From Candidatus Latescibacterota bacterium (lineage in GTDB: Bacteria; Latescibacterota; UBA2968), in contig OZ242010.1 in the NCBI GenBank assembly GCA_965204745.1, forward strand, positions 3,296,001 through 3,360,000: a stretch of 64,000 nucleotides of DNA, given 5' to 3'. The number at the start of each line of letters is the position of its first letter. Position 1 is the stretch's first letter. Made by a program: the position numbers and the translations under genes. The notes below the pieces were generated by a model. It worked only from the letters and a program-made list of their open reading frames with translations. It made no database searches and was not told the origin of the DNA. Positions 2,123 to 46,841 of the stretch are shown here, piece after piece.

Positions 2123-2214
2123 TGACTACTGACTACTGACTACTGACTACTGACTACTGACTACTGACTACTGACTACTGACTACTGACTACTGACTACT
2201 GACTACTGACTACT
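2123..2214. repeat. Heptamer tandem repeat (CTGACTA)n, right part (about 13 copies)
   Basis: Perfect 7-mer array seen directly. Confidence 0.97.
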
Positions 2215-2269
2215 TGAGCAATGGCGGGGTTGCCTCACCTCTCCCGTCTCCCCTCTTGTATCTTGGAAG

Positions 2270-2470
2270 TAAGGGTTAATTAGGAGTTGCGCCCTCGTAT
2301 CGAGATAAGCCATCTTGATGCCCGGCTCGGGGAAGGCCGGCCCCTCTTGAAGGCGATGACCTTGTAGGTAAGATAGGCCCCCCGACCACCGGGTCTATGC
2401 CGAAGAGTATCTAAGCCCCTTGAGGCTGCATATACAAGACCGGTAGACTTGGCGTCAATGGTCGGGACGC
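2270..2470 (+). ncRNA. Predicted IS110 bridge RNA, copy 1 (boundaries approximate)
   Basis: Guides CCCCTCTT (2341-2348), AGGTAAGA (2366-2373), AGAGTATCT (2404-2412) and ATACAAGA (2432-2439) match target and donor arms; each pair flanks an internal hairpin. Confidence 0.85.
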
Positions 2471-2522
2471 GACCCCGAGCGCACACCAGACCCTTACAAC
2501 CCCCTCATCACAGGAGGCCCCC

Positions 2523-3530
2523 ATGTCGAAATCTCAACCCGCTTTTGCCGGCATTGATGTCAGTGCCCGCACGTTGTCCGTTGCCCTGTCCAGACCCGGA
2601 CAAGCTGTCATGCAAGCGACCTTTGCCAATGATCCCCAAGCCCATAAGCGGTTGCTGCAGTGGCTCACGAAGGGCGGGCACATGGTCTCTGTGTGCCTCG
2701 AAGCGACCGGGCTTTACAGTTTGGGGGTGGCCTTGGCCTTGCATCGGCATCGCCACACAAAGGTCATGGTCGTCAATCCCAAAGCGATGAGCAAGTACGC
2801 CCAAGCCTGCATGCAACGGGCGAAGACGGATGCGAAGGATGCGTTGTTGATCCTCGACTATGCCGAGCGCATGCCTTTTGTGCCTTGGCAAGCGCCGAGC
2901 GAGCAACGGCTTCAACTGCAAGCCCTCACCAGACGCATTGACCAACTCAAGCAGGAGATCATCCGCGAACAGAGCCGCAACCACGCGCAGAGCTACCACA
3001 TCCGCAGCACACGGCGCATCGCACGCGATATTCAGGTGAATATTCGACACTTCAAACGCCGCATTGCCTACTTGGAAAGCCAAGCCCTCGATCTCGTTTT
3101 GCACGATGAGCCCCTCAAGCGTGCCTACCAACGCCTCTGCTCGACGCCTGGCATCGCGCAAACGAGTGCCTTGCGGCTCTTGGCCGAGTTGACCCTTTTG
3201 CCAGAGGAGATGCAACCGCCCCAGTGGGTCGCACATGCAGGCCTGGATCCCAAACCCAAACAATCCGGAACCGCCAATCCACAAAGACGCATCTCGAAAA
3301 CCGGGAATAAGTACCTCCGCCATGCCCTCTATATGCCTGCCTGGGTGGCCAGCAGACACGAAGTCCATGTCAAAGCCTTCTATGACCAACTCATCGCCCG
3401 CGGCAAGAAACCTTTGCAGGCTATCGTTGCGGTGATGCGAAAGTTGCTCCATTCGATCTGGGGCATGTTGCGCCATGACCAAGATTTTGAGGGCGAAAAA
3501 TTCTATCGAATCACCCCGAAAACCCCTTGA
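2523..3530 (+). CDS. IS110 DEDD recombinase/transposase
   Basis: GIDVS, LEATG, KTDAKDA (DEDD) and QSG serine motif; AGGAGG RBS. Confidence 0.95.
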   Translation: MSKSQPAFAGIDVSARTLSVALSRPGQAVMQATFANDPQAHKRLLQWLTKGGHMVSVCLEATGLYSLGVALALHRHRHTKVMVVNPKAMSKYAQACMQRAKTDAKDALLILDYAERMPFVPWQAPSEQRLQLQALTRRIDQLKQEIIREQSRNHAQSYHIRSTRRIARDIQVNIRHFKRRIAYLESQALDLVLHDEPLKRAYQRLCSTPGIAQTSALRLLAELTLLPEEMQPPQWVAHAGLDPKPKQSGTANPQRRISKTGNKYLRHALYMPAWVASRHEVHVKAFYDQLIARGKKPLQAIVAVMRKLLHSIWGMLRHDQDFEGEKFYRITPKTP

Positions 3531-3587
3531 CCTTTTAAGAGAGTATCTTACCTCTCACCGAAGGGGGTTGGGCGGGGTGGAAACTGC

Positions 3588-4613
3588 CTACTGACTCTCA
3601 AGCCATCGCAACTGATCCATTTCCGGAAACGGAACAATGCGATTTTCGAGCGGGCCAATACCTTCAAACGCCATGCACACGCGGTCGCCCTCGCGCAAAC
3701 CGGTCTCGAGATCGCGGTCGGAAAATACGATGGGCGTGCCCCAATAGAGAACTTGCAGGGTATCGGGTTTGAGGGGCAAGCGGGAAAAGAGCGAGCGTTC
3801 GAGGTGGAAGAGGCCGTCGGGCATGTTGAGGTGATCGCGCCCGGTGCGCCCTTCTTTGTGGGCGATGCACACCCCATTGCGAATCACCTTGCAAGAGACG
3901 GCCACACTGCGGTTGTCATAAGCCGAATCCGCGACCATCAACGGGCCTAAACTCGCGCAGCCATAAGACCAGTTTTTCGCCTGCGGCAAGTTGAGTGGGT
4001 TCTCGGCTTCGATGCCATTGTCCGTATAATCATTGCCCCCCGTGTACCCCAATCGCTCAATTTGACCTGTGGCGTTGAGCCCGTAAATGGTGACGAGTTC
4101 GGTTTCGGGCACCAGGCGGCGGGTGGTGTTCGGATATGAGATGCCGCCGCCGTGACCGACCAGAGCCGCGCTGTCGTTTTTGGCAAAGAGTTCGGGCATG
4201 CCGCCTTGCGCGCATTCTCGGTATTTTTGGTCGTACACATTGACGGTCTCGCCCGTGGCCTGCCTGGCCTCAATTTCGCGCAATTTCGCGCTGTCTTCAT
4301 GCGTGACGCCAGCCAGCCAAATCCGCAAGTTGTGCGGCGCGTCCCTCGGCGCCGTGACCGGGCTTATCAAGTGCGGTTGGTCAAAATCGCCCGCATTGTC
4401 CAACAAGTCGTCGAGCAGAAGGCGCGGCGCATCGCGGATATTGATCGCCTGCACGACAGACGCGATGCCATGTTCGCTCCCGCCGTGTCGATAATACAGG
4501 TCGTAAAGCGACGCCGGATGCGGAGCACGAGCCGTCAAGTCCAAAACATCGCGGCCCTCGACAAGCCCCAAGCGCGCACCGGTTCCGGGTTGTGCAAATT
4601 GCAAGAGTTTCAT
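3588..4613 (-). CDS. Fumarylacetoacetate hydrolase family protein
   Basis: AGVT, PELFAK, VPETEL, GNDY, EAENPLNLPQAK motifs; likely start MKLLQF at 4613. Confidence 0.8.
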   Translation of the reverse strand: MKLLQFAQPGTGARLGLVEGRDVLDLTARAPHPASLYDLYYRHGGSEHGIASVVQAINIRDAPRLLLDDLLDNAGDFDQPHLISPVTAPRDAPHNLRIWLAGVTHEDSAKLREIEARQATGETVNVYDQKYRECAQGGMPELFAKNDSAALVGHGGGISYPNTTRRLVPETELVTIYGLNATGQIERLGYTGGNDYTDNGIEAENPLNLPQAKNWSYGCASLGPLMVADSAYDNRSVAVSCKVIRNGVCIAHKEGRTGRDHLNMPDGLFHLERSLFSRLPLKPDTLQVLYWGTPIVFSDRDLETGLREGDRVCMAFEGIGPLENRIVPFPEMDQLRWLESQ

Positions 4614-8793: not shown

Positions 8794-8847
8794 CGGATAA
8801 ACGAGGTAAGAGGGGAGAGGCAAGAGGTAAGATACTCTCTTAAAAGG

Positions 8848-9855
8848 TCAAGGGGTTTTCGGGGTGATTCGATAGAATTTTTCGCCCTCAAAATCTTGGT
8901 CATGGCGCAACATGCCCCAGATCGAATGGAGCAACTTTCGCATCACCGCAACGATAGCCTGCAAAGGTTTCTTGCCGCGGGCGATGAGTTGGTCATAGAA
9001 GGCTTTGACATGGCCTTCGTGTCTGATGGCCACCCAGGCAGGCATATAGAGGGCATGGCGGAGGTACTTATTCCCGGTTTTCGAGATGCGTCTTTGTGGA
9101 TTGGCGGTTCCGGATTGTTTGGGTTTGGGATCCAGGCCTGCATGTGCGACCCACTGGGGCGGTTGCATCTCCTCTGGCAAAAGGGTCAACTCGGCCAAGA
9201 GCCGCAAGGCACTCGTTTGCGCGATGCCAGGCGTCGAGCAGAGGCGTTGGTAGGCACGCTTGAGGGGCTCATCGTGCAAAACGAGATCGAGGGCTTGGCT
9301 TTCCAAGTATGCAATCCGGCGTTTGAAGTGTCGAATATTCACCTGAATATCGCGTGCGATGAGACGTGTGCTGCGGATGTGGTAGCTCTGCGCGTGGTTG
9401 CGGCTCTGTTCGCGGATGATCTCCTGCTTGAGTTGGTCAATGCGTCTGGTGAGGGCTTGCAGTTGAAGCCGTTGCTCGCTCGGCGCTTGCCAAGGCACAA
9501 AAGGCATGCGCTCGGCATAGTCGAGGATCAACAACGCATCCTTCGCATCCGTCTTCGCCCGTTGCATGCAGGCTTGGGCGTACTTGCTCATCGCTTTGGG
9601 ATTGACGACCATGACCTTTGTGTGGCGATGCCGATGCAAGGCCAAGGCCACCCCCAAACTGTAAAGCCCGGTCGCTTCGAGGCACACAGAGACCATGTGC
9701 CCGCCCTTCGTGAGCCACTTCAGCAACCGCTTATGCGCTTGGGGATCATTGGCAAAGGTCGCTTGCATGACAGCTTGTCCGGGTCTGGACAGGGCAACGG
9801 ACAACGTGCGGGCACTGACATCAATGCCGGCAAAAGCGGGGTGAGATTTCGACAT
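8848..9855 (-). CDS. IS110 DEDD recombinase/transposase
   Basis: Same motifs as copy 1; start MSKSHP behind AGGAGG. Confidence 0.95.
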   Translation of the reverse strand: MSKSHPAFAGIDVSARTLSVALSRPGQAVMQATFANDPQAHKRLLKWLTKGGHMVSVCLEATGLYSLGVALALHRHRHTKVMVVNPKAMSKYAQACMQRAKTDAKDALLILDYAERMPFVPWQAPSEQRLQLQALTRRIDQLKQEIIREQSRNHAQSYHIRSTRLIARDIQVNIRHFKRRIAYLESQALDLVLHDEPLKRAYQRLCSTPGIAQTSALRLLAELTLLPEEMQPPQWVAHAGLDPKPKQSGTANPQRRISKTGNKYLRHALYMPAWVAIRHEGHVKAFYDQLIARGKKPLQAIVAVMRKLLHSIWGMLRHDQDFEGEKFYRITPKTP

Positions 9856-9909
9856 GGGGGCCTCCTGTGATGAGGGGGTTGTAAGGGATCTGGTGCGCGC
9901 TCGGGGTCG

Positions 9910-10110
9910 CGTCCCGACCATTGACGCCAAGTCTACCGGTCTTGTATATGCAGCCTCAAGGGGCTTAGATACTCTTCGGCATAGACCCGGCGGTCGGGGG
10001 GCCTATCTTACCTACAAGGTCATCGCCTTCAAGAGGGGCCGGCCTTCCCCGAGCCGGGCATCAAGATGGCTTATCTCGATACGAGGGCGCAACTCCTAAT
10101 TAACCCTTAC
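9910..10110 (-). ncRNA. Predicted IS110 bridge RNA, copy 2 (boundaries approximate)
   Basis: Same four guide segments as copy 1, on the minus strand. Confidence 0.8.
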
Positions 10111-10437
10111 TTCCAAGATACAAGAGGGGAGAGGGCTTGCGAGGAGGACATGCACAGGGGCCTATCCCTACGGTTGATGGCGACGGGGTGTGCGAAGGAC
10201 ATAGCGGGAGAACGATGAAGCGGCTGTAGGGTTGTGGGGGTAATCCGCGCAATCTGTGTAATCCGTTTAATCCGCGATTCAGACACGGCGGGGACGAGAC
10301 GGGCACGCACGGGTGGTTGGGCAGAGCGGCTGGGAATATCCCTTGACATCATTATCAGGCAGGCTGTATATTGCTTCTCGTCAAGCCATCCTCTATTCGT
10401 GAGCTGGACACCTACCCCCAACGCAAAGGAGAGAATC

Positions 10438-13400
10438 ATGCATAACCGGATTTTTTCAACAGGCTTGTTGATGACCGCGCTCACAGCGCTGGTCTTTCTG
10501 AGCTATCGGGTCGTTGCCGAACCCGATGCCCAAGGCGGCGCGACGGCTGGGGGATCTTCCCCTTCCGAAAGCCCGTCCTCGAGTGATATGCTCACCACGA
10601 CAAACCGGATCTCGTTTAACGTTCCTACGACTTCCACGGCCGATTTTGATGCCGATGGGATGGTAGGCTTTTCCGACTTCTTGGCGTTTGCAGGGCAGTA
10701 TGGCACGCGACAAGGGGATGGCAGATACCAAGCGAAGTATGATTTGGATAGCGATGGTGCGATAGACTTGCAGGATTTTCTGAGTTTTGCCGGCAGTTAT
10801 GGCAACACAGTACCTCCTCCACCTCCTAGTGGTGGCGGTACGCCCAAGATGTACTGGAGGGACAATGTCACGGATAAGATTCAGCGTGCCAACCTCGATG
10901 GCTCCAATGTCGAAGACCTCATCACCACAGGATTGAGGAATCCACGGGGCATCGCGCTAGATGTGGGACGCGGAAAGATGTACTGGACGGACAGGGACAC
11001 GGATAAGATTCAGCGTGCCAACCTCGATGGCTCCAATGTCGAAGACCTCATCACCACAGGATTGAGGAATCCACGGGGCATCGCGCTGGATGTGGGACGC
11101 GGAAAGATGTACTGGACGGACTGGGACACGGATAAGATTCAGCGTGCCAACCTCGATGGCTCCAATGTCGAAGACCTCATCACCACAGGATTGAGGGGGC
11201 CAGAGGGCATCGCGCTGGATGTGGGACGCGGAAAGATGTACTGGACGGACTATGGCACGGATAAGATTCAGCGTGCCAACCTCGATGGCTCCCAGGTTGA
11301 AGACCTCATCACCACAGGATTGAGCAATCCATCTGGCATCGCGCTAGATATGGGACGCGGAAAGATGTACTGGACGGACTATGGCACGGATAAGATTCAG
11401 CGTGCCAACCTCGATGGCTCCCAGGTTGAAGACCTCATCACCACAGGATTGAGCAATCCATCTAGCATCGCGCTGGATGTGGGACGCGGAAAGATGTACT
11501 GGACGGACTGGGACACGGATAAGATTCAGCGTGCCAACCTCGATGGCTCCCAGGTCGAAGACCTCATCACCACAGGATTGAGGACGCCAGGTGGCATCGC
11601 GCTGGATACTCAGGGAACCGGTAGTGCCGGTAGTGGCAGTGGTGGGGGTAGCAGTGGTCCTGACCTGATCGTTGAATCGCCTTCGGTCAGCGATAGCACC
11701 TTGACGCCTGGGCAATCCTTCACCCTGCACGCCACAGTTCGCAACCGGGGCACGGCTCGGTCAGCCTCGACGACCTTGCGCTACTACCGCTCGTCCGACG
11801 CGACGATCTCCACGAGCGATACAGAAGTGGGCACGGATTCGGTCAGCGGTCTGTCCGCTTCGGGCACGGGTTCGGAATCGATCAGTCTGACTGCTCCGTC
11901 GAGTACCGGCACGTATTACTACGGCGCGTGCGTGGCAAGCGTCAGCGACGAGAGCAACACCGACAACAACTGCTCGGCTGCCGTCGTGCGCGTCACGGTG
12001 AGTAGCGGTGGCGGTACGCCCAAGATGTACTGGACAGACTGGGGCACGGATAAGATTCAGTGTGCCAACTTGGATGGCTCCAATGTCGAAGACCTCATCA
12101 CCACAGGATTGACTACGCCAGTTGGCATCGTGCTGGATGTGGTACGCGGAAAGATGTACTGGACAGACTGGGGCACGGATAAGATTCAGCGTGCCAACTT
12201 GAATGGCTCCTATGTCGAAGACCTCATCACCACAGGATTGAGGGGGCCACGGGGCATCGCGCTAGATATGGGACGCGGAAAGATGTACTGGACGGACTCT
12301 GGCACGGATAAGATTCAGCGTGCCAACCTCGATGGCTCCAATGTCGAAGACCTCATCACCACAGGATTGAGTTATCCATATGGCATCGCGCTAGATGTGG
12401 GACGCGGAAAGATGTACTGGACGGACAGGGAAACGGATAAGATTCAGCGTGCCAACTTGGATGGCTCCAATGTCGAAGACCTCATCACCACAGGATTGAG
12501 CAATCCATCTGGCATCGCGCTGGATGTGGGACGCGGAAAGATGTACTGGACGGACAATGGCACGGATAAGATTCAGCGTGCCAACCTCGATGGCTCCAAT
12601 GTCGAAGACCTCATCACCACAGGATTGAGGAATCCACAGGGCCTCGCGCTGGATGTGGGCCGCGGAAAGATGTACTGGACGGACCCTGACACGGAGAAGA
12701 TTCAGCGTGCCAACCTCGATGGCTCCAATGTCGAAGACCTCATCACCACAGGATTGAGGAATCCACAGGGCCTCGCGCTGGATACTCAGGGAACCGGTAG
12801 TGCCGGTAGTGGCAGTGGTGGGGGTAGCAGTGGTCCTGACCTGATCGTTGAATCGCCTTCGGTCAGCGATAGCACCTTGACGCCTGGGCAATCCTTCACC
12901 CTGCACGCCACAGTTCGCAACCGGGGCACGGCTCGGTCAGCCTCGACGACCTTGCGCTACTACCGCTCGTCCGACGCGACGATCTCCACGAGCGATACAG
13001 AAGTGGGCACAGATTCGGTCAGCGGTCTGTCCGCTTCGGGCACGGGTTCGGAATCGATCAGTCTGACTGCTCCGTCGAGTACCGGCACGTATTACTACGG
13101 CGCGTGCGTGGCAAGCGTCAGCGACGAGAGCAACACCGACAACAACTGCTCGGCTGCCGTCGTGCGCGTCACGGTGAGTAGCGGTGGCGGTGGCGGTACG
13201 CCCAAGATGTACTGGGTGGACCCTGGCACGGATAAGATTCAATATGCCAACTTGGATGGCTCCAATGTCGAAGACCTCATCACCACAGGATTGAGGGGGC
13301 CATTGGGCATCGCGCTGGATGTGGGACGCGGAAAGATGTACTGGACGGACTGGCGCACGAATAAGATTCAGCGTGCCAACTTGGATGGCTCCAATGTCGA

Positions 13401-16400
13401 AGACCTCATCACCACAGGATTGAGTTCGCCAGAAGGCATCGCGCTAGATGGACGCGGAAAGATGTACTGGACGGACTCTGGCACGGATAAGATTCAGCGT
13501 GCCAACTTGAATGGCTCCTATGTCGAAGACCTCATCACCACAGGATTGAGTTATCCACAGGGCATCGCGCTAGATATGGGACGCGGAAAGATGTACTGGA
13601 CGGACCCTGTCACGGATAAGATTCAGCGTGCCAACCTCGATGGCTCCAATGTCGAAGACCTCATCACCACAGGATTGAGGTCGGCATCAGGCATCGCGCT
13701 AGATGTGGGACGCGGAAAGATGTACTGGACGGACTCTGGCACGCCTGGGTACCAGGGCACGAAGAAGATTCAGCGTGCCAACTTGGATGGCTCCAATGTC
13801 GAAGACCTCATCACCACAGGATTGTGGGGGCCAGAGGGCATCGCGCTGGATGTGGGCCGCGGAAAGATGTACTGGACGGACCCTGGCACGGATAAGATTC
13901 AGCGTGCCAACCTCGATGGCTCCAATGTCGAAGACCTCATCACCACAGGATTGAGTGTGCCATTGGGCATCGCGCTGGATACTCAGGGAACCGGTAGTGC
14001 CGGTAGCGGCAGTGGTGGGGGTAGCAGTGGTCCTGACCTGATCGTTGAATCGCCTTCGGTCAGCGATAGCACCTTGACGCCTGGGCCATCCTTCACCTTA
14101 CAAGTCACCGTTCGCAATCGGGGCACGGGGCAATCAGCCTCGACGACCTTGCGCTACTACCGCTCGTCCGACGCGACGATCTCCACGAGCGATACAGAAG
14201 TGGGCACAGATTCGGTCAGCGGTCTGTCCGCTTCGGGCACGGGTTCGGAATCGATCAGTCTAACTGCTCCGTCGAGTACCGGCACGTATTACTACGGCGC
14301 GTGCGTGGCAAGCGTCAGCGGCGAGAGCAACACCGACAACAACTGCTCGGCTGCCGTGCGCGTCACGGTCAGTGGTAGCGGTAGCGGCGGTGGCGGCACA
14401 CCTACTAAGATGTACTGGATATCCGGTACCAAGATTCAGCGGGCCAACCTCGATGGGTCCGAGGTCGAAGACCTCATCACCACAGGATTGAGGAATCCAC
14501 GGGGCATCGCGCTGGATGTGGGACGCGGAAAGATGTACTGGACGGACTGGGACACGGATAAGATTCAGCGTGCCAACCTCGATGGCTCCAATGTCGAAGA
14601 CCTCATCACCACAGGATTGAGGGGGCCAGAGGGCATCGCGCTGGATGTGGGACGCGGAAAGATGTACTGGACAGAGAACCTCGGAGCCACCGACAGGATT
14701 CGGAGGGCGAACCTTGATGGGTCCGAGGTCGAAGTCGTCGTGAAACCAGGAGGCGGAGGTCCGGTCGCGCTGGGGCTAGGAAAGATATACTGGGCGACCC
14801 GTAGTAGTATTCAGCGGGCCAATCTCGATGGCTCCGAGGTCGAAGACCTCATCACCACAGGATTGAGGGGGTCACGGGGCATCGCGCTGGATGTGGGGCG
14901 AGGAAAGATATACTGGAAGGACAATTCTTACCCGTATAAGATTCAGCGGGCCAACCTCGATGGGTCCGAGGTTGAAGACCTCATCACAGGATCGGGGTAT
15001 GGAGGAGGCATCGCGCTGGATGTGGGGCGAGGAAAGATATACTGGACGAACGGCAGAAGTAAGATTCAGCGGGCCAACCTCGATGGGTCCGAGGTCGAAG
15101 ACCTCATCACAGGATTGGATGCTCCAAACGGCATCGCGCTGGACGGTCTTGCTGTTAGCGAGGGTGCTGGTCTCGACCTGATCGTTGGCTCGCCTGAGGT
15201 CAGCGACAGCCTACTGGCGCCTGGGCAATCCTTCTCCCTGCGCGCAAGAGTTCGCAACAGCAGCCCGGTATGGTCCGCCGCAACGACCTTGCGCTACTAC
15301 CGCTCAACGGACGCGACAATCTCCACCAGCGATACACCCGTCGGCACGAACGAGGTGGGCGAGCTGTCGGCTTGGGGCACGAGTTTGGAAGCGATCGATC
15401 TGACGGCCCCGTCAAATACCGGCACGTATTACTACGGCGCGTGTGTCGAAAGCGTCAGCGGCGAGAGCAAGACCAATAACAACTGCTCGGATGCCGTGCG
15501 CGTTACGGTGAGTAGCGGTGGTGGTGGCGGTGGCGGCACACCTAATAAGATGTACTGGATATCCGGTACCAAGATTCAGCGGGCCAACCTCGATGGGTCC
15601 TATATCGAAGACCTCATCACCGGAGGGGAGTGGCCAAGAGGCCTCGCGCTGGATGTGGGGCGAGGAAAGATATACTGGACGATCTCTAGTAGTATTCAGC
15701 GGGCCAACCTCAATGGGTCCGAGGTCGAAGACCTCATCACAGGATCGGGGTATAAAGGAGGCCTCGCGCTGGATGTGGGGCGAGGAAAGATATACTGGAA
15801 GGACAATTCTTACCCGTATAAGATTCAGCGGGCCAACCTCGATGGGTCCGAGGTTGAAGACCTCATCACAGGATCGGGGTCTGAAGGAGGCCTCGCGCTG
15901 GATGTGGGGCTAGGAAAGATGTACTGGACGACCCGTAGTAGGATTCAGCGGGCCAATCTCGATGGCTCCGAGGTCGAAGACCTCATCACCAGATTGGCCG
16001 ACCTAGGAGGCATCGCGCTGGATGTGGGGCGAGGAAAGATGTACTGGAAGGGCAATTCTTACCCGTATAAGATTCAGCGGGCCAACCTCGATGGGTCCGA
16101 GGTCGAAGACCTCATCACAGGATCGGGGTCTGAAGGAGGCCTCGCGCTGGATGTGGGGCTAGGAAAGATGTACTGGACGACCCGTAGTAGGATTCAGCGG
16201 GCCAATCTCGATGGCTCCGAGGTCGAAGACCTCATCACCAGATTGGCCGACCTAGGAGGCATCGCGCTGGCACTGGACGATCTTGCTGTCAGCGAGGCCA
16301 CTGGTTTCGACTTAGTCGTTGAATCGCCTTCGGTCAGCGACAGCCTACTGACGCCTGGGCAATCCTTCTCCCTGCGCGCAAGAGTTCGCAACAGCAGCAC

Positions 16401-44263: not shown

Positions 44264-45109
44264 ATGTCACAAAAGAAGATCGTCGTCATCGGTGCAGCGG
44301 GCTATGTGGCGGGGTTGATGCTACCCGCATTGCGCGCACAATACGACCTGACCTTGCTGGACGTCAAAACCACCACCCGCGATGGTGACGCAGTCGAAGG
44401 CGTGCAAATCGCGGACTTGGAAAATCCGGATCGGGATGCGTACCGCGCCCATTTTCAAGGGGCAGACGCCGTCGTCCACTGCGGGTTCAAGGGCACGGTG
44501 GCCTGGCAACACACGGACTACTGGAAAGAATCCGACAATATTCGGATGTGCTACAACGTGTACCAAACCTGCATTGAAGAAGGCGTCAACCGCATCGTGG
44601 TGATGAGTTCCAACCACGCCTGCGACTTTTACGAGCGGCTGATCTGGTCCGACCAATTGGACTTTGCCACCACCGACATGCTACCCCTGTCCGACAATTT
44701 TTACGGCTGGGCCAAATCCTCCTACGAACACCTCGCCTTCGTGTTTGCAACCGGCAACGCCACCGATGGCAAGCGGCTGGAAAGCGTCCACATCCGCATC
44801 GGCGCGCCCCGCGACACCGTCATGGAAGGGCAATCCGCAGACGACCTGAAACGCATGCACCGCGAACTCGGCGCGTACTTGAGCGCGCGCGACCTCTCGC
44901 AACTCGTCATCAAAAGCCTCGAAACCGAGAACATCGAAGACGAAAACGGCATCCCATTTCAAATTTTTTTCGGCATCAGCGGAAACACACACCGATTCTG
45001 GAACATCGCCAACGCAAGACGCATCGTGGGCTACGCACCCGAAGACGACAGCCAACTCCGCTTTGCGAATGAGATTGCAAAAGTGATACAAAAGAGAGGG
45101 GAGAGGTAA
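44264..45109 (+). CDS. NAD-dependent epimerase/dehydratase (uronate dehydrogenase-like)
   Basis: GAAGYVA Rossmann motif, SSNHA, YGWAK; stop codon overlaps the IS110 core. Confidence 0.8.
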   Translation: MSQKKIVVIGAAGYVAGLMLPALRAQYDLTLLDVKTTTRDGDAVEGVQIADLENPDRDAYRAHFQGADAVVHCGFKGTVAWQHTDYWKESDNIRMCYNVYQTCIEEGVNRIVVMSSNHACDFYERLIWSDQLDFATTDMLPLSDNFYGWAKSSYEHLAFVFATGNATDGKRLESVHIRIGAPRDTVMEGQSADDLKRMHRELGAYLSARDLSQLVIKSLETENIEDENGIPFQIFFGISGNTHRFWNIANARRIVGYAPEDDSQLRFANEIAKVIQKRGER

Positions 45110-45126
45110 GATACTCTCTTAAAAGG

Positions 45127-46134
45127 TCAAGGGGTTTTCGGGGTGATTCGATAGAATTTTTCGCCCTCAAAATCTTGGTCATGGCGCAACATGCCCCAGA
45201 TCGAATGGAGCAACTTTCGCATCACCGCAACGATAGCCTGCAAAGGTTTCTTGCCGCGGGCGATGAGTTGGTCATAGAAGGCTTTGACATGGCCTTCGTG
45301 TCTGATGGCCACCCAGGCAGGCATATAGAGGGCATGGCGGAGGTACTTATTCCCGGTTTTCGAGATGCGTCTTTGTGGATTGGCGGTTCCGGATTGTTTG
45401 GGTTTGGGATCCAGGCCTGCATGTGCGACCCACTGGGGCGGTTGCATCTCCTCTGGCAAAAGGGTCAACTCGGCCAAGAGCCGCAAGGCACTCGTTTGCG
45501 CGATGCCAGGCGTCGAGCAGAGGCGTTGGTAGGCACGCTTGAGGGGCTCATCGTGCAAAACGAGATCGAGGGCTTGGCTTTCCAAGTATGCAATCCGGCG
45601 TTTGAAGTGTCGAATATTCACCTGAATATCGCGTGCGATGAGACGTGTGCTGCGGATGTGGTAGCTCTGCGCGTGGTTGCGGCTCTGTTCGCGGATGATC
45701 TCCTGCTTGAGTTGGTCAATGCGTCTGGTGAGGGCTTGCAGTTGAAGCCGTTGCTCGCTCGGCGCTTGCCAAGGCACAAAAGGCATGCGCTCGGCATAGT
45801 CGAGGATCAACAACGCATCCTTCGCATCCGTCTTCGCCCGTTGCATGCAGGCTTGGGCGTACTTGCTCATCGCTTTGGGATTGACGACCATGACCTTTGT
45901 GTGGCGATGCCGATGCAAGGCCAAGGCCACCCCCAAACTGTAAAGCCCGGTCGCTTCGAGGCACACAGAGACCATGTGCCCGCCCTTCGTGAGCCACTTC
46001 AGCAACCGCTTATGCGCTTGGGGATCATTGGCAAAGGTCGCTTGCATGACAGCTTGTCCGGGTCTGGACAGGGCAACGGACAACGTGCGGGCACTGACAT
46101 CAATGCCGGCAAAAGCGGGGTGAGATTTCGACAT
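45127..46134 (-). CDS. IS110 DEDD recombinase/transposase
   Basis: Same protein as copy 2. Confidence 0.95.
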   Translation of the reverse strand: MSKSHPAFAGIDVSARTLSVALSRPGQAVMQATFANDPQAHKRLLKWLTKGGHMVSVCLEATGLYSLGVALALHRHRHTKVMVVNPKAMSKYAQACMQRAKTDAKDALLILDYAERMPFVPWQAPSEQRLQLQALTRRIDQLKQEIIREQSRNHAQSYHIRSTRLIARDIQVNIRHFKRRIAYLESQALDLVLHDEPLKRAYQRLCSTPGIAQTSALRLLAELTLLPEEMQPPQWVAHAGLDPKPKQSGTANPQRRISKTGNKYLRHALYMPAWVAIRHEGHVKAFYDQLIARGKKPLQAIVAVMRKLLHSIWGMLRHDQDFEGEKFYRITPKTP

Positions 46135-46189
46135 GGGGGCCTCCTGTGATGAGGGGGTTGTAAGGGATCTGGTGCGCGCTCGGGGTCGC

Positions 46190-46390
46190 GTCCCGACCAT
46201 TGACGCCAAGTCTACCGGTCTTGTATATGCAGCCTCAAGGGGCTTAGATACTCTTCGGCATAGACCCGGCGGTCGGGGGGCCTATCTTACCTACAAGGTC
46301 ATCGCCTTCAAGAGGGGCCGGCCTTCCCCGAGCCGGGCATCAAGATGGCTTATCTCGATACGAGGGCGCAACTCCTAATTAACCCTTACT
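46190..46390 (-). ncRNA. Predicted IS110 bridge RNA, copy 3 (boundaries approximate)
   Basis: Same four guide segments on the minus strand. Confidence 0.8.
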
Positions 46391-46400
46391 TCCAAGATAC

Positions 46401-46841
46401 AAGAGGGGAGAGGGGAGAGGGGAGAGGCAAGAGGGGAGAGGGGAGAGGGGAGAGGCAAGAGGGGAGAGGTAAGAGGTAAGACGGGAGAGGTGAAAGGTGA
46501 GAGGCCGGGGAATATAGGCTGGGATAACGCACAGGACGGTGTGGAGGTGGAGAGGAAGGGCACGCACACGGCGGGGCAGGGTAGCGGAGGGGATCGCACT
46601 TGGGCGGATGGGCGGGCCAGGGATGGGCACGCACGGGCGGATGGGTGGATGAGCGGGACACGCACTTGGGCGGCGGCGCAGAAGCGAGGATGGGCACGCA
46701 CTTGGGCGGTGGCGCGGAAGCGGGCACAGAGGCATTCGCCCCTACAAACACCGCTCACCTCTTGCCTCTTGCCTCTTGCCTCTTGCCTTTTGCCTTTTGC
46801 CTTTTGCCTTTTGCCTCTTACGTCTTACGTCTTACGTCTCA
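46401..46841. repeat. Composite intergenic repeat: inverted heptamer arrays (GAGGGGA/GAGGCAA vs CCTCTTG/CCTTTTG/CGTCTTA) around GGGCACGCAC-type repeats
   Basis: Arrays at about 46401-46504 and 46753-46841 in opposite orientation; lies between convergent genes. Confidence 0.85.

Follow-up and report, generated by a model that had tools for sequence, protein, structure and literature searches.

Insertion sequences of the IS110 family lack terminal inverted repeats, carry the same core dinucleotide at both ends and generate no target duplication beyond this core, features also present in the element described here. In the IS1111 subgroup, a recombinase of the same protein family is associated with an element-encoded guide RNA, the so-called seekRNA, located downstream of the gene. 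With respect to IS621 from Escherichia coli, the available parts of two reports (PMC11208160, PMC11208158) locate the RNA upstream of the gene, within the left end, and describe it as a 5' hairpin followed by a target-binding loop and a donor-binding loop. According to the rule laid down in the available text of PMC11208160, the left target guide (LTG) and left donor guide (LDG) are both complementary to the bottom strand and hence have the top-strand sequence, the right guides (RTG and RDG) bind the top strand and have the sequence of its reverse complement, and the core is part of all four guides. The same text describes how joining the ends of the element restores a promoter. Other members of the family, ISPpu9 and ISPpu10 from Pseudomonas putida, have all their copies located in one short dispersed class of host repeats, as far as the available descriptions go.

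The window analysed here, a stretch of 64,000 nucleotides of a Candidatus Latescibacterota genome, contains three copies of what is very probably an autonomous IS621-type insertion sequence (IS110 family), with a bridge RNA encoded in its left end. The element shares with IS621 both protein domains, the catalytic motifs, the position of the predicted RNA upstream of the gene with its 5' hairpin and two loops, the coverage of the core CT by all four guides in the same strand sense, and a promoter-like sequence rebuilt across the joined ends (available text of PMC11208160 and PMC11208158). In contrast, the two recombinases are distantly related (phmmer E 1.2e-36), and the target consists of a junction of 7-nt tandem repeats instead of a REP element. 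The left guide of the element displays five clear non-core matches (CCCCT) against seven in IS621, whereas its right guide covers five non-core bases (TACCT) against two in wild-type IS621, as given in the available text of PMC11208160. In addition, an extra T-A adjoins the core on each loop strand of the element. A blastn search of the element with the 'distant' setting against 20,395 E. coli records yielded no DNA match. The recombinase of ISCro4 (PDB code 9t56), compared by protein only, is the best match among solved structures (E 1.3e-39, residues 7-326). The element resembles ISPpu9 and ISPpu10 in the confinement of its copies to one class of short host repeats but differs from them, by description and within the available sources, in that these two insert into palindromic REP or conserved intergenic sequences and not into tandem heptamers. 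Unlike the IS1111 elements, it has no long non-coding right end: only 18 nt separate the end of the stop codon (3530) from that of the element (3548), which leaves no room for an RNA downstream of the gene.

The RNA-guided mechanism being already known, the element is a clear further example of it, whose value lies in the natural situation that it offers. One closed genome contains 52 copies with at least four guide variants, each located at the repeat junction dictated by its own loops. This example is drawn from a little-studied group of bacteria, the closest relatives occurring in metagenome-assembled genomes of Latescibacterota. Without overturning the current understanding of these elements, it indicates that dedicated insertion sites can be tandem heptamer arrays and not only REP-type palindromes. 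A recombinase with a longer right target guide than that of wild-type IS621 also represents a candidate tool.

Organization of the element and its copies

The main features of the element and of its flanks in the window are as follows.

2257..3548, + strand: copy 1 of the IS110-family element; its 1292 bp start with the donor base that follows the left core and include the right core
about 8830..10122, - strand: copy 2, in target CCCCT-CT-TACCT; 99.07% identity to copy 1, DNA of the majority form
about 45109..46401, - strand: copy 3, majority form, in target CCCCT-CT-TACCT within a long array of CCCCTCT heptamers
2230..2256, + strand: left flank, a short CCTCTNN-type heptamer array, with CCCCT (2250-2254) as left target half and CT (2255-2256) as core at its end
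2257..2264, + strand: left end, corresponding to the right donor half, TGTATCTT; includes a -10-like TATCTT (2259-2264)
2523..3530, + strand: recombinase gene, 335 amino acids, with DEDD (RuvC-like) and Transposase_20 domains
3527..3532, + strand: -35-like TTGACC in the right end, overlapping the stop codon; it would act together with the left-end -10 only after circularisation
3540..3553, + strand: right end, AGAGTAT (3540-3546), corresponding to the left donor half, then CT (3547-3548) as core and TACCT (3549-3553) as right target half

Probes of 29 nt taken from the ends gave three matches each in the window, against 0.00 expected. The initial annotation of this DNA had proposed a common target for the three copies; all of them have ...TCTCCCCTCTT on the left and ACCTCT on the right. 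At the genome scale, 52 full copies were found, among which 51 possess an intact open reading frame and 30 have the same DNA sequence throughout their roughly 1.29 kb. This supports the recent activity that had been proposed for the element. Copy 1 shares its sequence with no other copy, 12 differences separating it from the majority form.

The core CT stands 5' of TGTATC on the left and 3' of AGAGTAT on the right in 51/52 copies, the last copy having one left-end base changed. No inverted repeats were detected by eye between the ends TGTATCTT and AGAGTATCT. The left end TGTA[TC]CTT was present in all the loci examined (23/23). A shared core of up to four nucleotides had also been suggested. 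The sequence TCTT does not hold as a core, as four of the 52 copies read C after the right-hand CT (GTATCT/C...), whereas CTCT/TGTAT is invariably the left junction. The exchange would thus take place within TCT, and CT probably represents the core, as the parsimonious choice and as in IS621; the additional T on each side then corresponds to an identity between target and donor.

The recombinase

The Pfam domains PF01548 (8e-25) and PF02371 (1.2e-19) were both recognized in the recombinase, and its full-length matches among solved structures are the recombinases of ISCro4 (1.3e-39) and IS621 (1.2e-36), the alignment to the IS621 chain 8wt6_A spanning residues 8-326. The assignment to the IS110 family, made at the outset, is thereby confirmed. 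The putative catalytic residues D12, E60, D103, D106 and S248 are invariant in seven homologs and align with motifs containing the published residues D11, E60, D102, D105 and S241. The protein thus displays the N-terminal DEDD domain and the C-terminal Tnp domain with a putative catalytic serine that are expected from an IS110 recombinase.

The predicted bridge RNA

The non-coding left end upstream of the gene comprises 265 nt, and its predicted fold (z = -2.63) is organized around the following elements.

2297..2321, + strand: 5' stem-loop of the non-coding RNA, a 10-bp stem and a 5-nt loop in the minimum-free-energy fold
2326..2479, + strand: core of the bridge RNA, with the outer stem CTCGGGG (2326-2332) / CCCCGAG (2473-2479) around both binding loops
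2335..2379, + strand: target-binding loop, closed by GGCC (2335-2338) / GGCC (2376-2379), with the apical hairpin AAGG (2350-2353) / CCTT (2360-2363)
2381..2466, + strand: donor-binding loop with the stems CCCGACC/GGTCGGG, GGTC/GACT and TGCCG/CGGTA, and the apical hairpin AGCC (2414-2417) / GGCT (2424-2427)

Folding and covariation with homologs give a 5' hairpin and two internal loops, in agreement with the two-loop bridge-RNA layout recognized in the initial annotation. The RNAalifold consensus contains 33 pairs, 14 of which show compensatory changes; in the outer stem (helix 1), both sides change in 3/5 pairs. In the consensus fold 94.5% of the cells are paired, against at most 47.4% in slid controls. 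The observed values were reached by 0/500 shuffles on four of the five measures and by 8/500 on the fifth. A scan against Rfam 15 gave four chance-level matches, with scores well short of the gathering thresholds; the lowest E value was 1.1. Among 74 relative loci, 34 distinct left ends were read by eye; 32 of them exhibit the same scaffold with variable guide segments, and in the other two (L098 and L100) the scaffold is not clearly visible.

Regarding the individual helices, the stem CCCGACCA (2381-2388) / TGGTCGGG (2459-2466) lies where it had been placed, and likewise the GGCC, AAGG/CCTT and AGCC/GGCT stems. Next to the donor loop, covariation backs, in place of GTCTA/TAGAC, the helix TGCCG (2398-2402) / CGGTA (2441-2445), accompanied by GGTC/GACT, with which GTCTA/TAGAC has three pairs in common. 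The change A2388>G does occur in copies 2 and 3, where it turns an A-U pair into a G-U pair. However, the pair A2388-T2459 is lost in relatives (the loci of genome G082 have G opposite A), so that the conserved stem consists of 7 bp.

Guides and predicted recognition of target and donor

Four segments located in the two loops correspond to the target and to the ends of the element.

2341..2347, + strand: left target guide, CCCCT+CT, plus T2348; CCCCTCTT at 2341-2348
2366..2372, + strand: right target guide, AGGTA+AG; AGGTAAGA at 2366-2373; handshake positions A2373 and U2374
2404..2412, + strand: left donor guide, AGAGTAT+CT, AGAGTATCT
2432..2438, + strand: right donor guide, ATACA+AG; ATACAAGA at 2432-2439; handshake positions A2439 and C2440

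These four assignments, proposed beforehand together with their strand sense, check in both coordinates and strings, and they match the IS621 rule exactly, as it stands in the available text of PMC11208160. The LDG equals the right end plus CT, and the RDG the reverse complement of CT plus TGTAT.

The guides change together with the targets. The comparison rested on relatives drawn from nine other genomes and on the subfamilies of the present genome. With one representative per lineage, sometimes the better-matched insertion, 114/132 positions match between guide and target over 12 lineages, whereas shuffled pairs reach 64.2 +/- 6.5 with a maximum of 95, and none of 20000 shuffles equals the observed value. 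Similarly, the mean match over all 28 cognate pairs is 4.79/6 on the left and 4.18/5 on the right; the 392 non-cognate pairs give 2.62 and 2.45. Minor subfamilies possess guide pairs shifted to other heptamer junctions: the so-called 89% subfamily, with the guides GCGCCTCTT and AAGTAAGA, is located in CGCCT-CT-TACTT, and the copy at genome position 1297037, with GTCCCTCTC and AGGTGAGA, in TCCCT-CT-CACCT. A few guides match poorly, namely those of the copy at 602783 (3 mismatches), of the locus L010 (3/6 on the left) and of the G082 loci (6-8/9 on the left).

The donors are nearly invariant, and a joint change of donor and guide was therefore seen in one lineage only, represented by the locus L007, whose right end and LDG both read GAAAAC; the handshake bases of the target loop follow. 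The donor of IS621 around the core is presumably a nearly identical string to that of the present element.

In the target loop, the handshake bases AU can pair with A6 and T7 of the donor, a situation comparable to that of A81/U82 with dA6/dT7 in IS621 (available text of PMC11208158). In the donor loop, the base adjoining the core, as read by eye, fits target position 7 exactly in 7/10 lineages and by wobble in two more. Since T7 of the target equals T7 of the donor, the two handshake bases are each able to pair with their own DNA as well, a pairing that was inhibitory in IS621 and that the present element may tolerate. At the position of G166 of IS621, the present element has an A, which can pair with T7 of the donor itself. 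According to the available text of PMC11208158, the mutation G166A strongly reduces recombination in IS621; by analogy, either the G166 rule may be relaxed in the present element, or the element may pay a cost.

Insertion in heptamer arrays and occupancy of the sites

The targeting of the heptamer repeats of the host, deduced from the three copies of the window, extends to the whole genome: all 52 reconstructed sites are located in heptamer arrays of the CCTCTNN type and none in an unrelated target, at least three units spanning 47/52 of them and at least four units 41/52. These arrays may act as safe harbours for the element, as had been proposed. The literature on IS110 elements and heptameric or tandem repeats yielded no description of a tandem-heptamer insertion, although Supplementary Data 2 of PMC11208160 may list the element or its relatives. 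The "tandem repeat" of 10.1101/2025.10.25.684509 designates tandem copies of a cargo, in the available part of this source.

For the 45 copies carrying the main guide pair, occupancy tracks complementarity. CCCCT-CT occurs on the left of 40 of these copies, a 41st differing by one base at its left end, whereas, among the 3967 junctions between array units, only 6.8% have this sequence. The site CCCCT-CT-TACCT is occupied 20 times and empty 5 times in the genome (80%). For CCCCT-CT-TGCCT, in which a U-G wobble is allowed, 16 sites are occupied and 63-65 empty (20%), and for TACCT-CT-TACCT 4 are occupied and 80 empty (5%). This drop from 80% to 20% and 5% with decreasing complementarity represents a natural read-out of the specificity of a bridge recombinase and of its tolerance towards mismatches.

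One may tentatively imagine that a shortage of target sites drives a natural reprogramming of the bridge RNA within a single genome, an idea that we regard as rather unlikely; 22-25 sites CGCCT-CT-TACTT, the target of the 89% subfamily, remain empty. Should it be true, the fast-mutating tandem heptamer arrays would act as self-renewing landing pads, continuously generating new junctions that match the guides, and the element and the repeat would evolve together.

Proposed mechanism and alternative explanations

The proposed mechanism would start with the excision of the element as a circle, in which the right end and the left end are joined across the CT core. The joined ends create the sequence TTGACC-18-TATCTT, which matches a promoter of the sigma-70-like type, whereas a scan of the integrated copy for promoters detected no promoter-like site. 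Such a joined-end promoter was recognized in 15/23 loci, the other 8/23 falling under the threshold of an E. coli-like consensus that is perhaps not suited to this phylum. From this promoter, roughly 200 nt of the left end would be transcribed, and the RNA would fold into the 5' hairpin and the two internal loops. The first loop would pair with both strands of the heptamer-array junction CCCCT-CT-TACCT and the second with the element's own junction AGAGTAT-CT-TGTAT, while the two bases 3' of each core-binding segment, the handshake positions, could pair with the other DNA after strand exchange. The DEDD/Ser recombinase, associated with this RNA, would exchange the strands at CT and insert the circle without target duplication. 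On this basis, the recombinase provided with the left end is predicted to recombine the target CCCCTCTTACCT with the joined ends.

The bridge RNA is deduced here from the sequence, and it could be argued that the guide-like segments of the left end are DNA sites, subterminal repeats or decoys, read by the transposase, the heptamer being chosen by the protein. The near invariance of the donor sequence across relatives is what a protein site would display. Several observations make such a direct reading by the protein highly improbable. The variable segments coincide with the internal loops of a fold whose helices undergo compensatory changes, and the mismatches that are tolerated often correspond to RNA-DNA wobbles, such as TGCCT facing the guide AGGUA or CATA facing UGUG. 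Moreover, within each loop one side reads one strand of the DNA and the second side the other, an arrangement identical to that of the solved IS621 complex according to the available text of PMC11208160 and PMC11208158, and the recombinase shows full-length homology to two recombinases solved together with their bridge RNA.

The match between guides and flanks might also be historical, the family being the remnant of one past burst, in which RNA and recombinase no longer cooperate in this genome. The singleton status of copy 1, with its distance from the majority form, and the A found in place of G166, which the IS621 rule would make inhibitory (available text of PMC11208158), would be in line with such a decay, as would the contigs of the runs X1, X3, X7 and X10, among which no joint of right end to left end, i.e., no circle junction, was seen, although contigs cannot show absence. 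The integrity of almost all reading frames and the identity of 30 copies over their length stand against it, together with the occurrence of at least three subfamilies, each inserted in the sites that its own guides specify, and the extinction of the system appears quite improbable. A working element of the IS621 type thus remains the preferred explanation.

Traces of mobility were looked for in related populations. A joint leading from 2253 to 3546 skips exactly 1292 bases and connects the flanks of copy 1 without the element; observed in one contig of a related population (run X1; depth 2.43, shorter side 28 nt), it weakly suggests a presence/absence polymorphism of copy 1, and argues to that extent against a fossil family. 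A search for empty sites using copy 2 and its flanks against 21 genomes of the genus gave no more than a left-flank match in G082 and many matches to a repetitive gene on the right side. Several other skip joints with sides of 21-28 nt, a weak kind of trace, lie in repeats, and only the X1 joint fits the element exactly.

The element, its copies and its recombinase

The stretch carries an IS110-family insertion sequence in three copies. The features of copy 1 are as follows, with the guides written as non-core part + core.

Features of copy 1 (window coordinates)
2257-3548, + strand: IS110-family mobile element, copy 1, 1292 bp
2341-2347, + strand: left target guide (LTG), CCCCU+CU, same sense as left flank plus core
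2366-2372, + strand: right target guide (RTG), AGGUA+AG, reverse complement of core plus TACCT
2404-2412, + strand: left donor guide (LDG), AGAGUAU+CU, same sense as right end plus core
2432-2438, + strand: right donor guide (RDG), AUACA+AG, reverse complement of core plus TGTAT
2523-3530, + strand: recombinase ORF, the sole long ORF of the element, 335 aa

A non-coding left end of 265 bases precedes the ORF, and only 18 bases separate the stop codon from the end of the element. The protein contains both IS110 transposase Pfam domains (DEDD_Tnp_IS110, 8e-25; Transposase_20, 1.2e-19), and the solved bridge recombinases ISCro4 (E 1.3e-39) and IS621 (E 1.2e-36) align over nearly its full length; its relationship to IS621 is only distant. 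Residues D12, E60, D103, D106 and S248 occupy the motifs holding D11, E60, D102, D105 and S241, the catalytic residues of IS621 according to the available text of PMC11208158, and they are unchanged in an alignment of seven homologs (53-83% identity to the window protein). In the homolog from locus L005 of another genome, G101, a stop codon occurs within the matched frame, though the genome search recorded no stop in its match.

The host genome, a single contig of 5.48 Mb (56.5% G+C), contains 52 full-length copies together with fragments. With respect to copy 1, 37 copies are 98.7-100% identical, nine about 96%, one 94.7% and five about 89%; the ORF is intact in 51 of the 52, and 30 share one DNA sequence over their full length. 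Copy 1 occurs only once, with 12 differences from the majority form. All the strings and coordinates of the initial annotation proved correct against the window sequence, including the three copies and the G that replaces A2388 in copies 2 and 3. At 1121587-1124179 of this genome, beyond the window, a member of the 96% subfamily and one of the 99% subfamily lie head to tail, 7 bp apart; these 7 bp correspond to one heptamer unit, TACCTCT, which fits two independent insertions at neighbouring junctions of one array.

Guides and predicted fold of the bridge RNA

In bridge RNAs, as described in PMC11208160, the bottom strand is bound by LTG and LDG and the top strand by RTG and RDG, each of the four guides including the core. 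Compared with IS621, the left guide of the present element is shorter and the right guide longer.

The left end folds with a z of -2.63 relative to shuffles. An alignment of 20 left ends, six being variants of this genome and 14 coming from nine other genomes (recombinases 52-83% identical), yielded in RNAalifold an outer stem followed by two internal loops, the first with a GGCC/GGCC closing stem and an AAGG/CCTT apical hairpin, the second with a long closing stem and an AGCC/GGCU apical hairpin. Compensatory changes occur in 14 of the 33 pairs, and 94.5% of the cells are paired on the consensus structure, the CCCGACC/GGUCGGG stem, out of register in distant sequences, being left out of these counts. 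The observed values were reached by none of 500 shuffles on four of five measures and by 8 of 500 on the fifth; when the partners are slid by 1-3 columns, pairing falls to 23-47%.

The scaffold around the guides is almost invariant across genomes, and the alignment varies most in the two target segments. In sequencing run X10, a contig from a related population follows the element to 2340 and departs from it precisely where the left target guide begins; its left guide differs, and so does the beginning of its right guide. Judged by its sequence, it represents another naturally occurring guide variant, from beyond this genome. C2341>T has a depth of 30.3 of 241.5 in that run.

Ends, core and a possible empty site

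In all copies the left end reads ...CT|TGTATCTT and the right end AGAGTAT-CT|. The base just right of the right-hand CT is T in 48 copies, hence the TCTT core of up to 4 nt initially proposed, and C in the other four of the 52, which indicates that this base is target-derived and that exchange takes place to its left. The TCTT version therefore does not hold; CT, preceded by T in both partners, stands as the most parsimonious candidate core. The core of IS621 is likewise a CT dinucleotide (available text of PMC11208160). In sequencing run X1, one contig joins 2253 to 3546, a skip of precisely 1292 bases with 4 bases ambiguous; this joint fits the empty site of copy 1 in a related population, weakly so, since it comes from a single low-depth contig with a shorter side of 28 nt.

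The joined ends (3543-3549 + 2258-2264) would read GTATCTT twice in tandem, so that the donor site of the circle junction would consist of two 7-nt repeats with TCTT at their end, resembling the host heptamers CCCTCTT and ACCTCTT. This resemblance may be a coincidence, because the left end TGTATCTT and the right end AGTATCT are kept in distant relatives. At loci L022 and L017 of genome G041, the left junction is ..CAT|TGTATC and the right junction TAT-CT|AACG, and the last two bases of the left target guide are AU; a target core AT facing a donor core CT may represent a natural mismatched-core insertion.

Target arrays and their occupancy

Tandem repeat searches (TRF) of the genome returned 357 period-7 and 185 period-14 arrays; loosely defined CCTCTNN-type arrays of at least 3 units number 672, with 3967 unit junctions. 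All 52 insertions lie within CCTCTNN-type arrays, a 2-unit array being nearly implied by the target sequence itself; 47 of the 52 sites are spanned by at least 3 units and 41 by at least 4. The CCCCT-CT left half represents 6.8% of the unit junctions, yet of the 45 copies carrying the main guide pair (CCCCT+CT / AGGTA+AG) 40 are inserted there, and in a 41st the left half is off by one base, at its left end. Occupancy by these 45 copies declines as complementarity drops.

Occupancy of target sites by the 45 copies with the main guide pair
CCCCT-CT-TACCT (perfect match): 20 occupied, 5 empty
CCCCT-CT-TGCCT (U-G wobble possible): 16 occupied, 63-65 empty
TACCT-CT-TACCT: 4 occupied, 80 empty
Other sites: 5 occupied

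Further heptamer families are abundant genome-wide by TRF (AACTGAC, 94 arrays; ACCACTG, 65; ACTACTG, 49), and none of the 52 copies is inserted in them. An (ACTACTG)n array of about 13 units (window 2123-2215) abuts the array holding copy 1. A G-rich box (GGCGGGGTTGCC, GGGCGGGGTGG, GCGGTGGCC) flanks many of the CCTCT-type arrays, e.g., at window 2224-2236 and 3561-3582, and the left flank ..GGTGGCC(N)TCTCCCCTCT occurs in at least 10 of the 52 copies; the arrays may belong to a more extensive dispersed repeat.

Joint change of guides with targets and donors

Guides covary with targets. The subfamily about 89% identical to copy 1 has the guides GCGCCUCUU and AAGUAAGA and the target CGCCT-CT-TACTT or close variants, and in the copy at genome coordinate 1297037 the guides are GUCCCUCUC and AGGUGAGA and the target is TCCCT-CT-CACCT. 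Both flanks also track the guides in genomes G091, G128, G101, G120, G097, G041, G152 and G151. Scored over 6 non-core left and 5 right positions, 12 lineage representatives, hand-picked and in some lineages chosen as the better-matched insertion, match at 114 of 132 positions versus 64.2 +/- 6.5 on random re-pairing (maximum 95); none of 20000 shuffles attained 114. Among all 28 insertions, unselected, cognate means are 4.79 of 6 (left) and 4.18 of 5 (right), versus 2.62 and 2.45 for 392 non-cognate pairs. Poor matches occur in the copy at 602783 (3 mismatches), at locus L010 (left, 3/6) and at the loci of genome G082 (left, 6-8 of 9). The donor is nearly constant; only in lineage L007 does it vary, the right end GAGAAAAC-CT being matched by the LDG GGAAAACC.

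In IS621, according to the text available of PMC11208158, the two nucleotides that follow each core-binding segment on its 3' side pair, after exchange, with positions 6-7 of the other DNA, and the reaction is blocked when these handshake bases pair with their own DNA. In the present element the target-loop handshake bases, AU, are identical to those given for IS621 and can pair with donor A6 and T7; in L007 they shift from AU-type to GU-type, tracking the donor. The core-adjacent base of the donor loop matches target position 7 exactly in 7 of 10 lineages and by wobble in 2 more, as read by eye from a table. Because position 7 is T in target and donor alike, pairing of either handshake base with its own DNA is also possible. 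The equivalent of IS621 G166 is an A, a change (G166A) reported in PMC11208158 as strongly inhibitory in IS621. Since the element has clearly spread to 52 copies, the own-DNA rule seems less strict here than in IS621.

Judged at the sequence level, the element has all the defining traits of an IS621-type element that could be compared, except that the handshake pairing is ambiguous. The two differ in target class (tandem heptamers versus REP elements) and in host, the closest relatives of the present element occurring in Latescibacterota MAGs and more remote relatives in MAGs of beta- and gammaproteobacteria. Literature searches revealed no publication on IS110 elements that target tandem heptamers; the supplementary tables of the large PMC11208160 survey may include the present element.

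Predicted promoter and proposed mechanism

A promoter scan found no sigma-70-like site in the integrated copy. Joining the right and left ends in silico creates TTGACC, 18 nt, TATCTT, the -35 overlapping the stop codon and the -10 lying within the initial bases of the left end; an equivalent site occurs in 15 of 23 loci, mostly with a 17-nt spacer, and falls below threshold in eight. This predicted promoter agrees, as a sequence match, with the promoter rebuilt on the circle in the available text of PMC11208160. We infer that excision would produce a circle, whose rebuilt junction promoter would drive transcription of the bridge RNA; a recombinase-RNA complex would then hold the circle junction in one loop and the heptamer junction in the other, and strand exchange at CT would result in insertion without target duplication.

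Neighbouring sequences

Immediately left of copy 1, two consecutive ORFs (993-1547 and 1616-2098, + strand) look like two halves of another transposase gene, and a DDE-like region is discernible by eye in the second. The right flank of copy 2 (window ~10830-16180) is a gene region built of internal repeats; bases 3228-3801 of the copy 2 query (element plus flanks) gave many matches of 78-93% identity at 3307233-3312179 of this genome, with further matches in several genomes of the genus.
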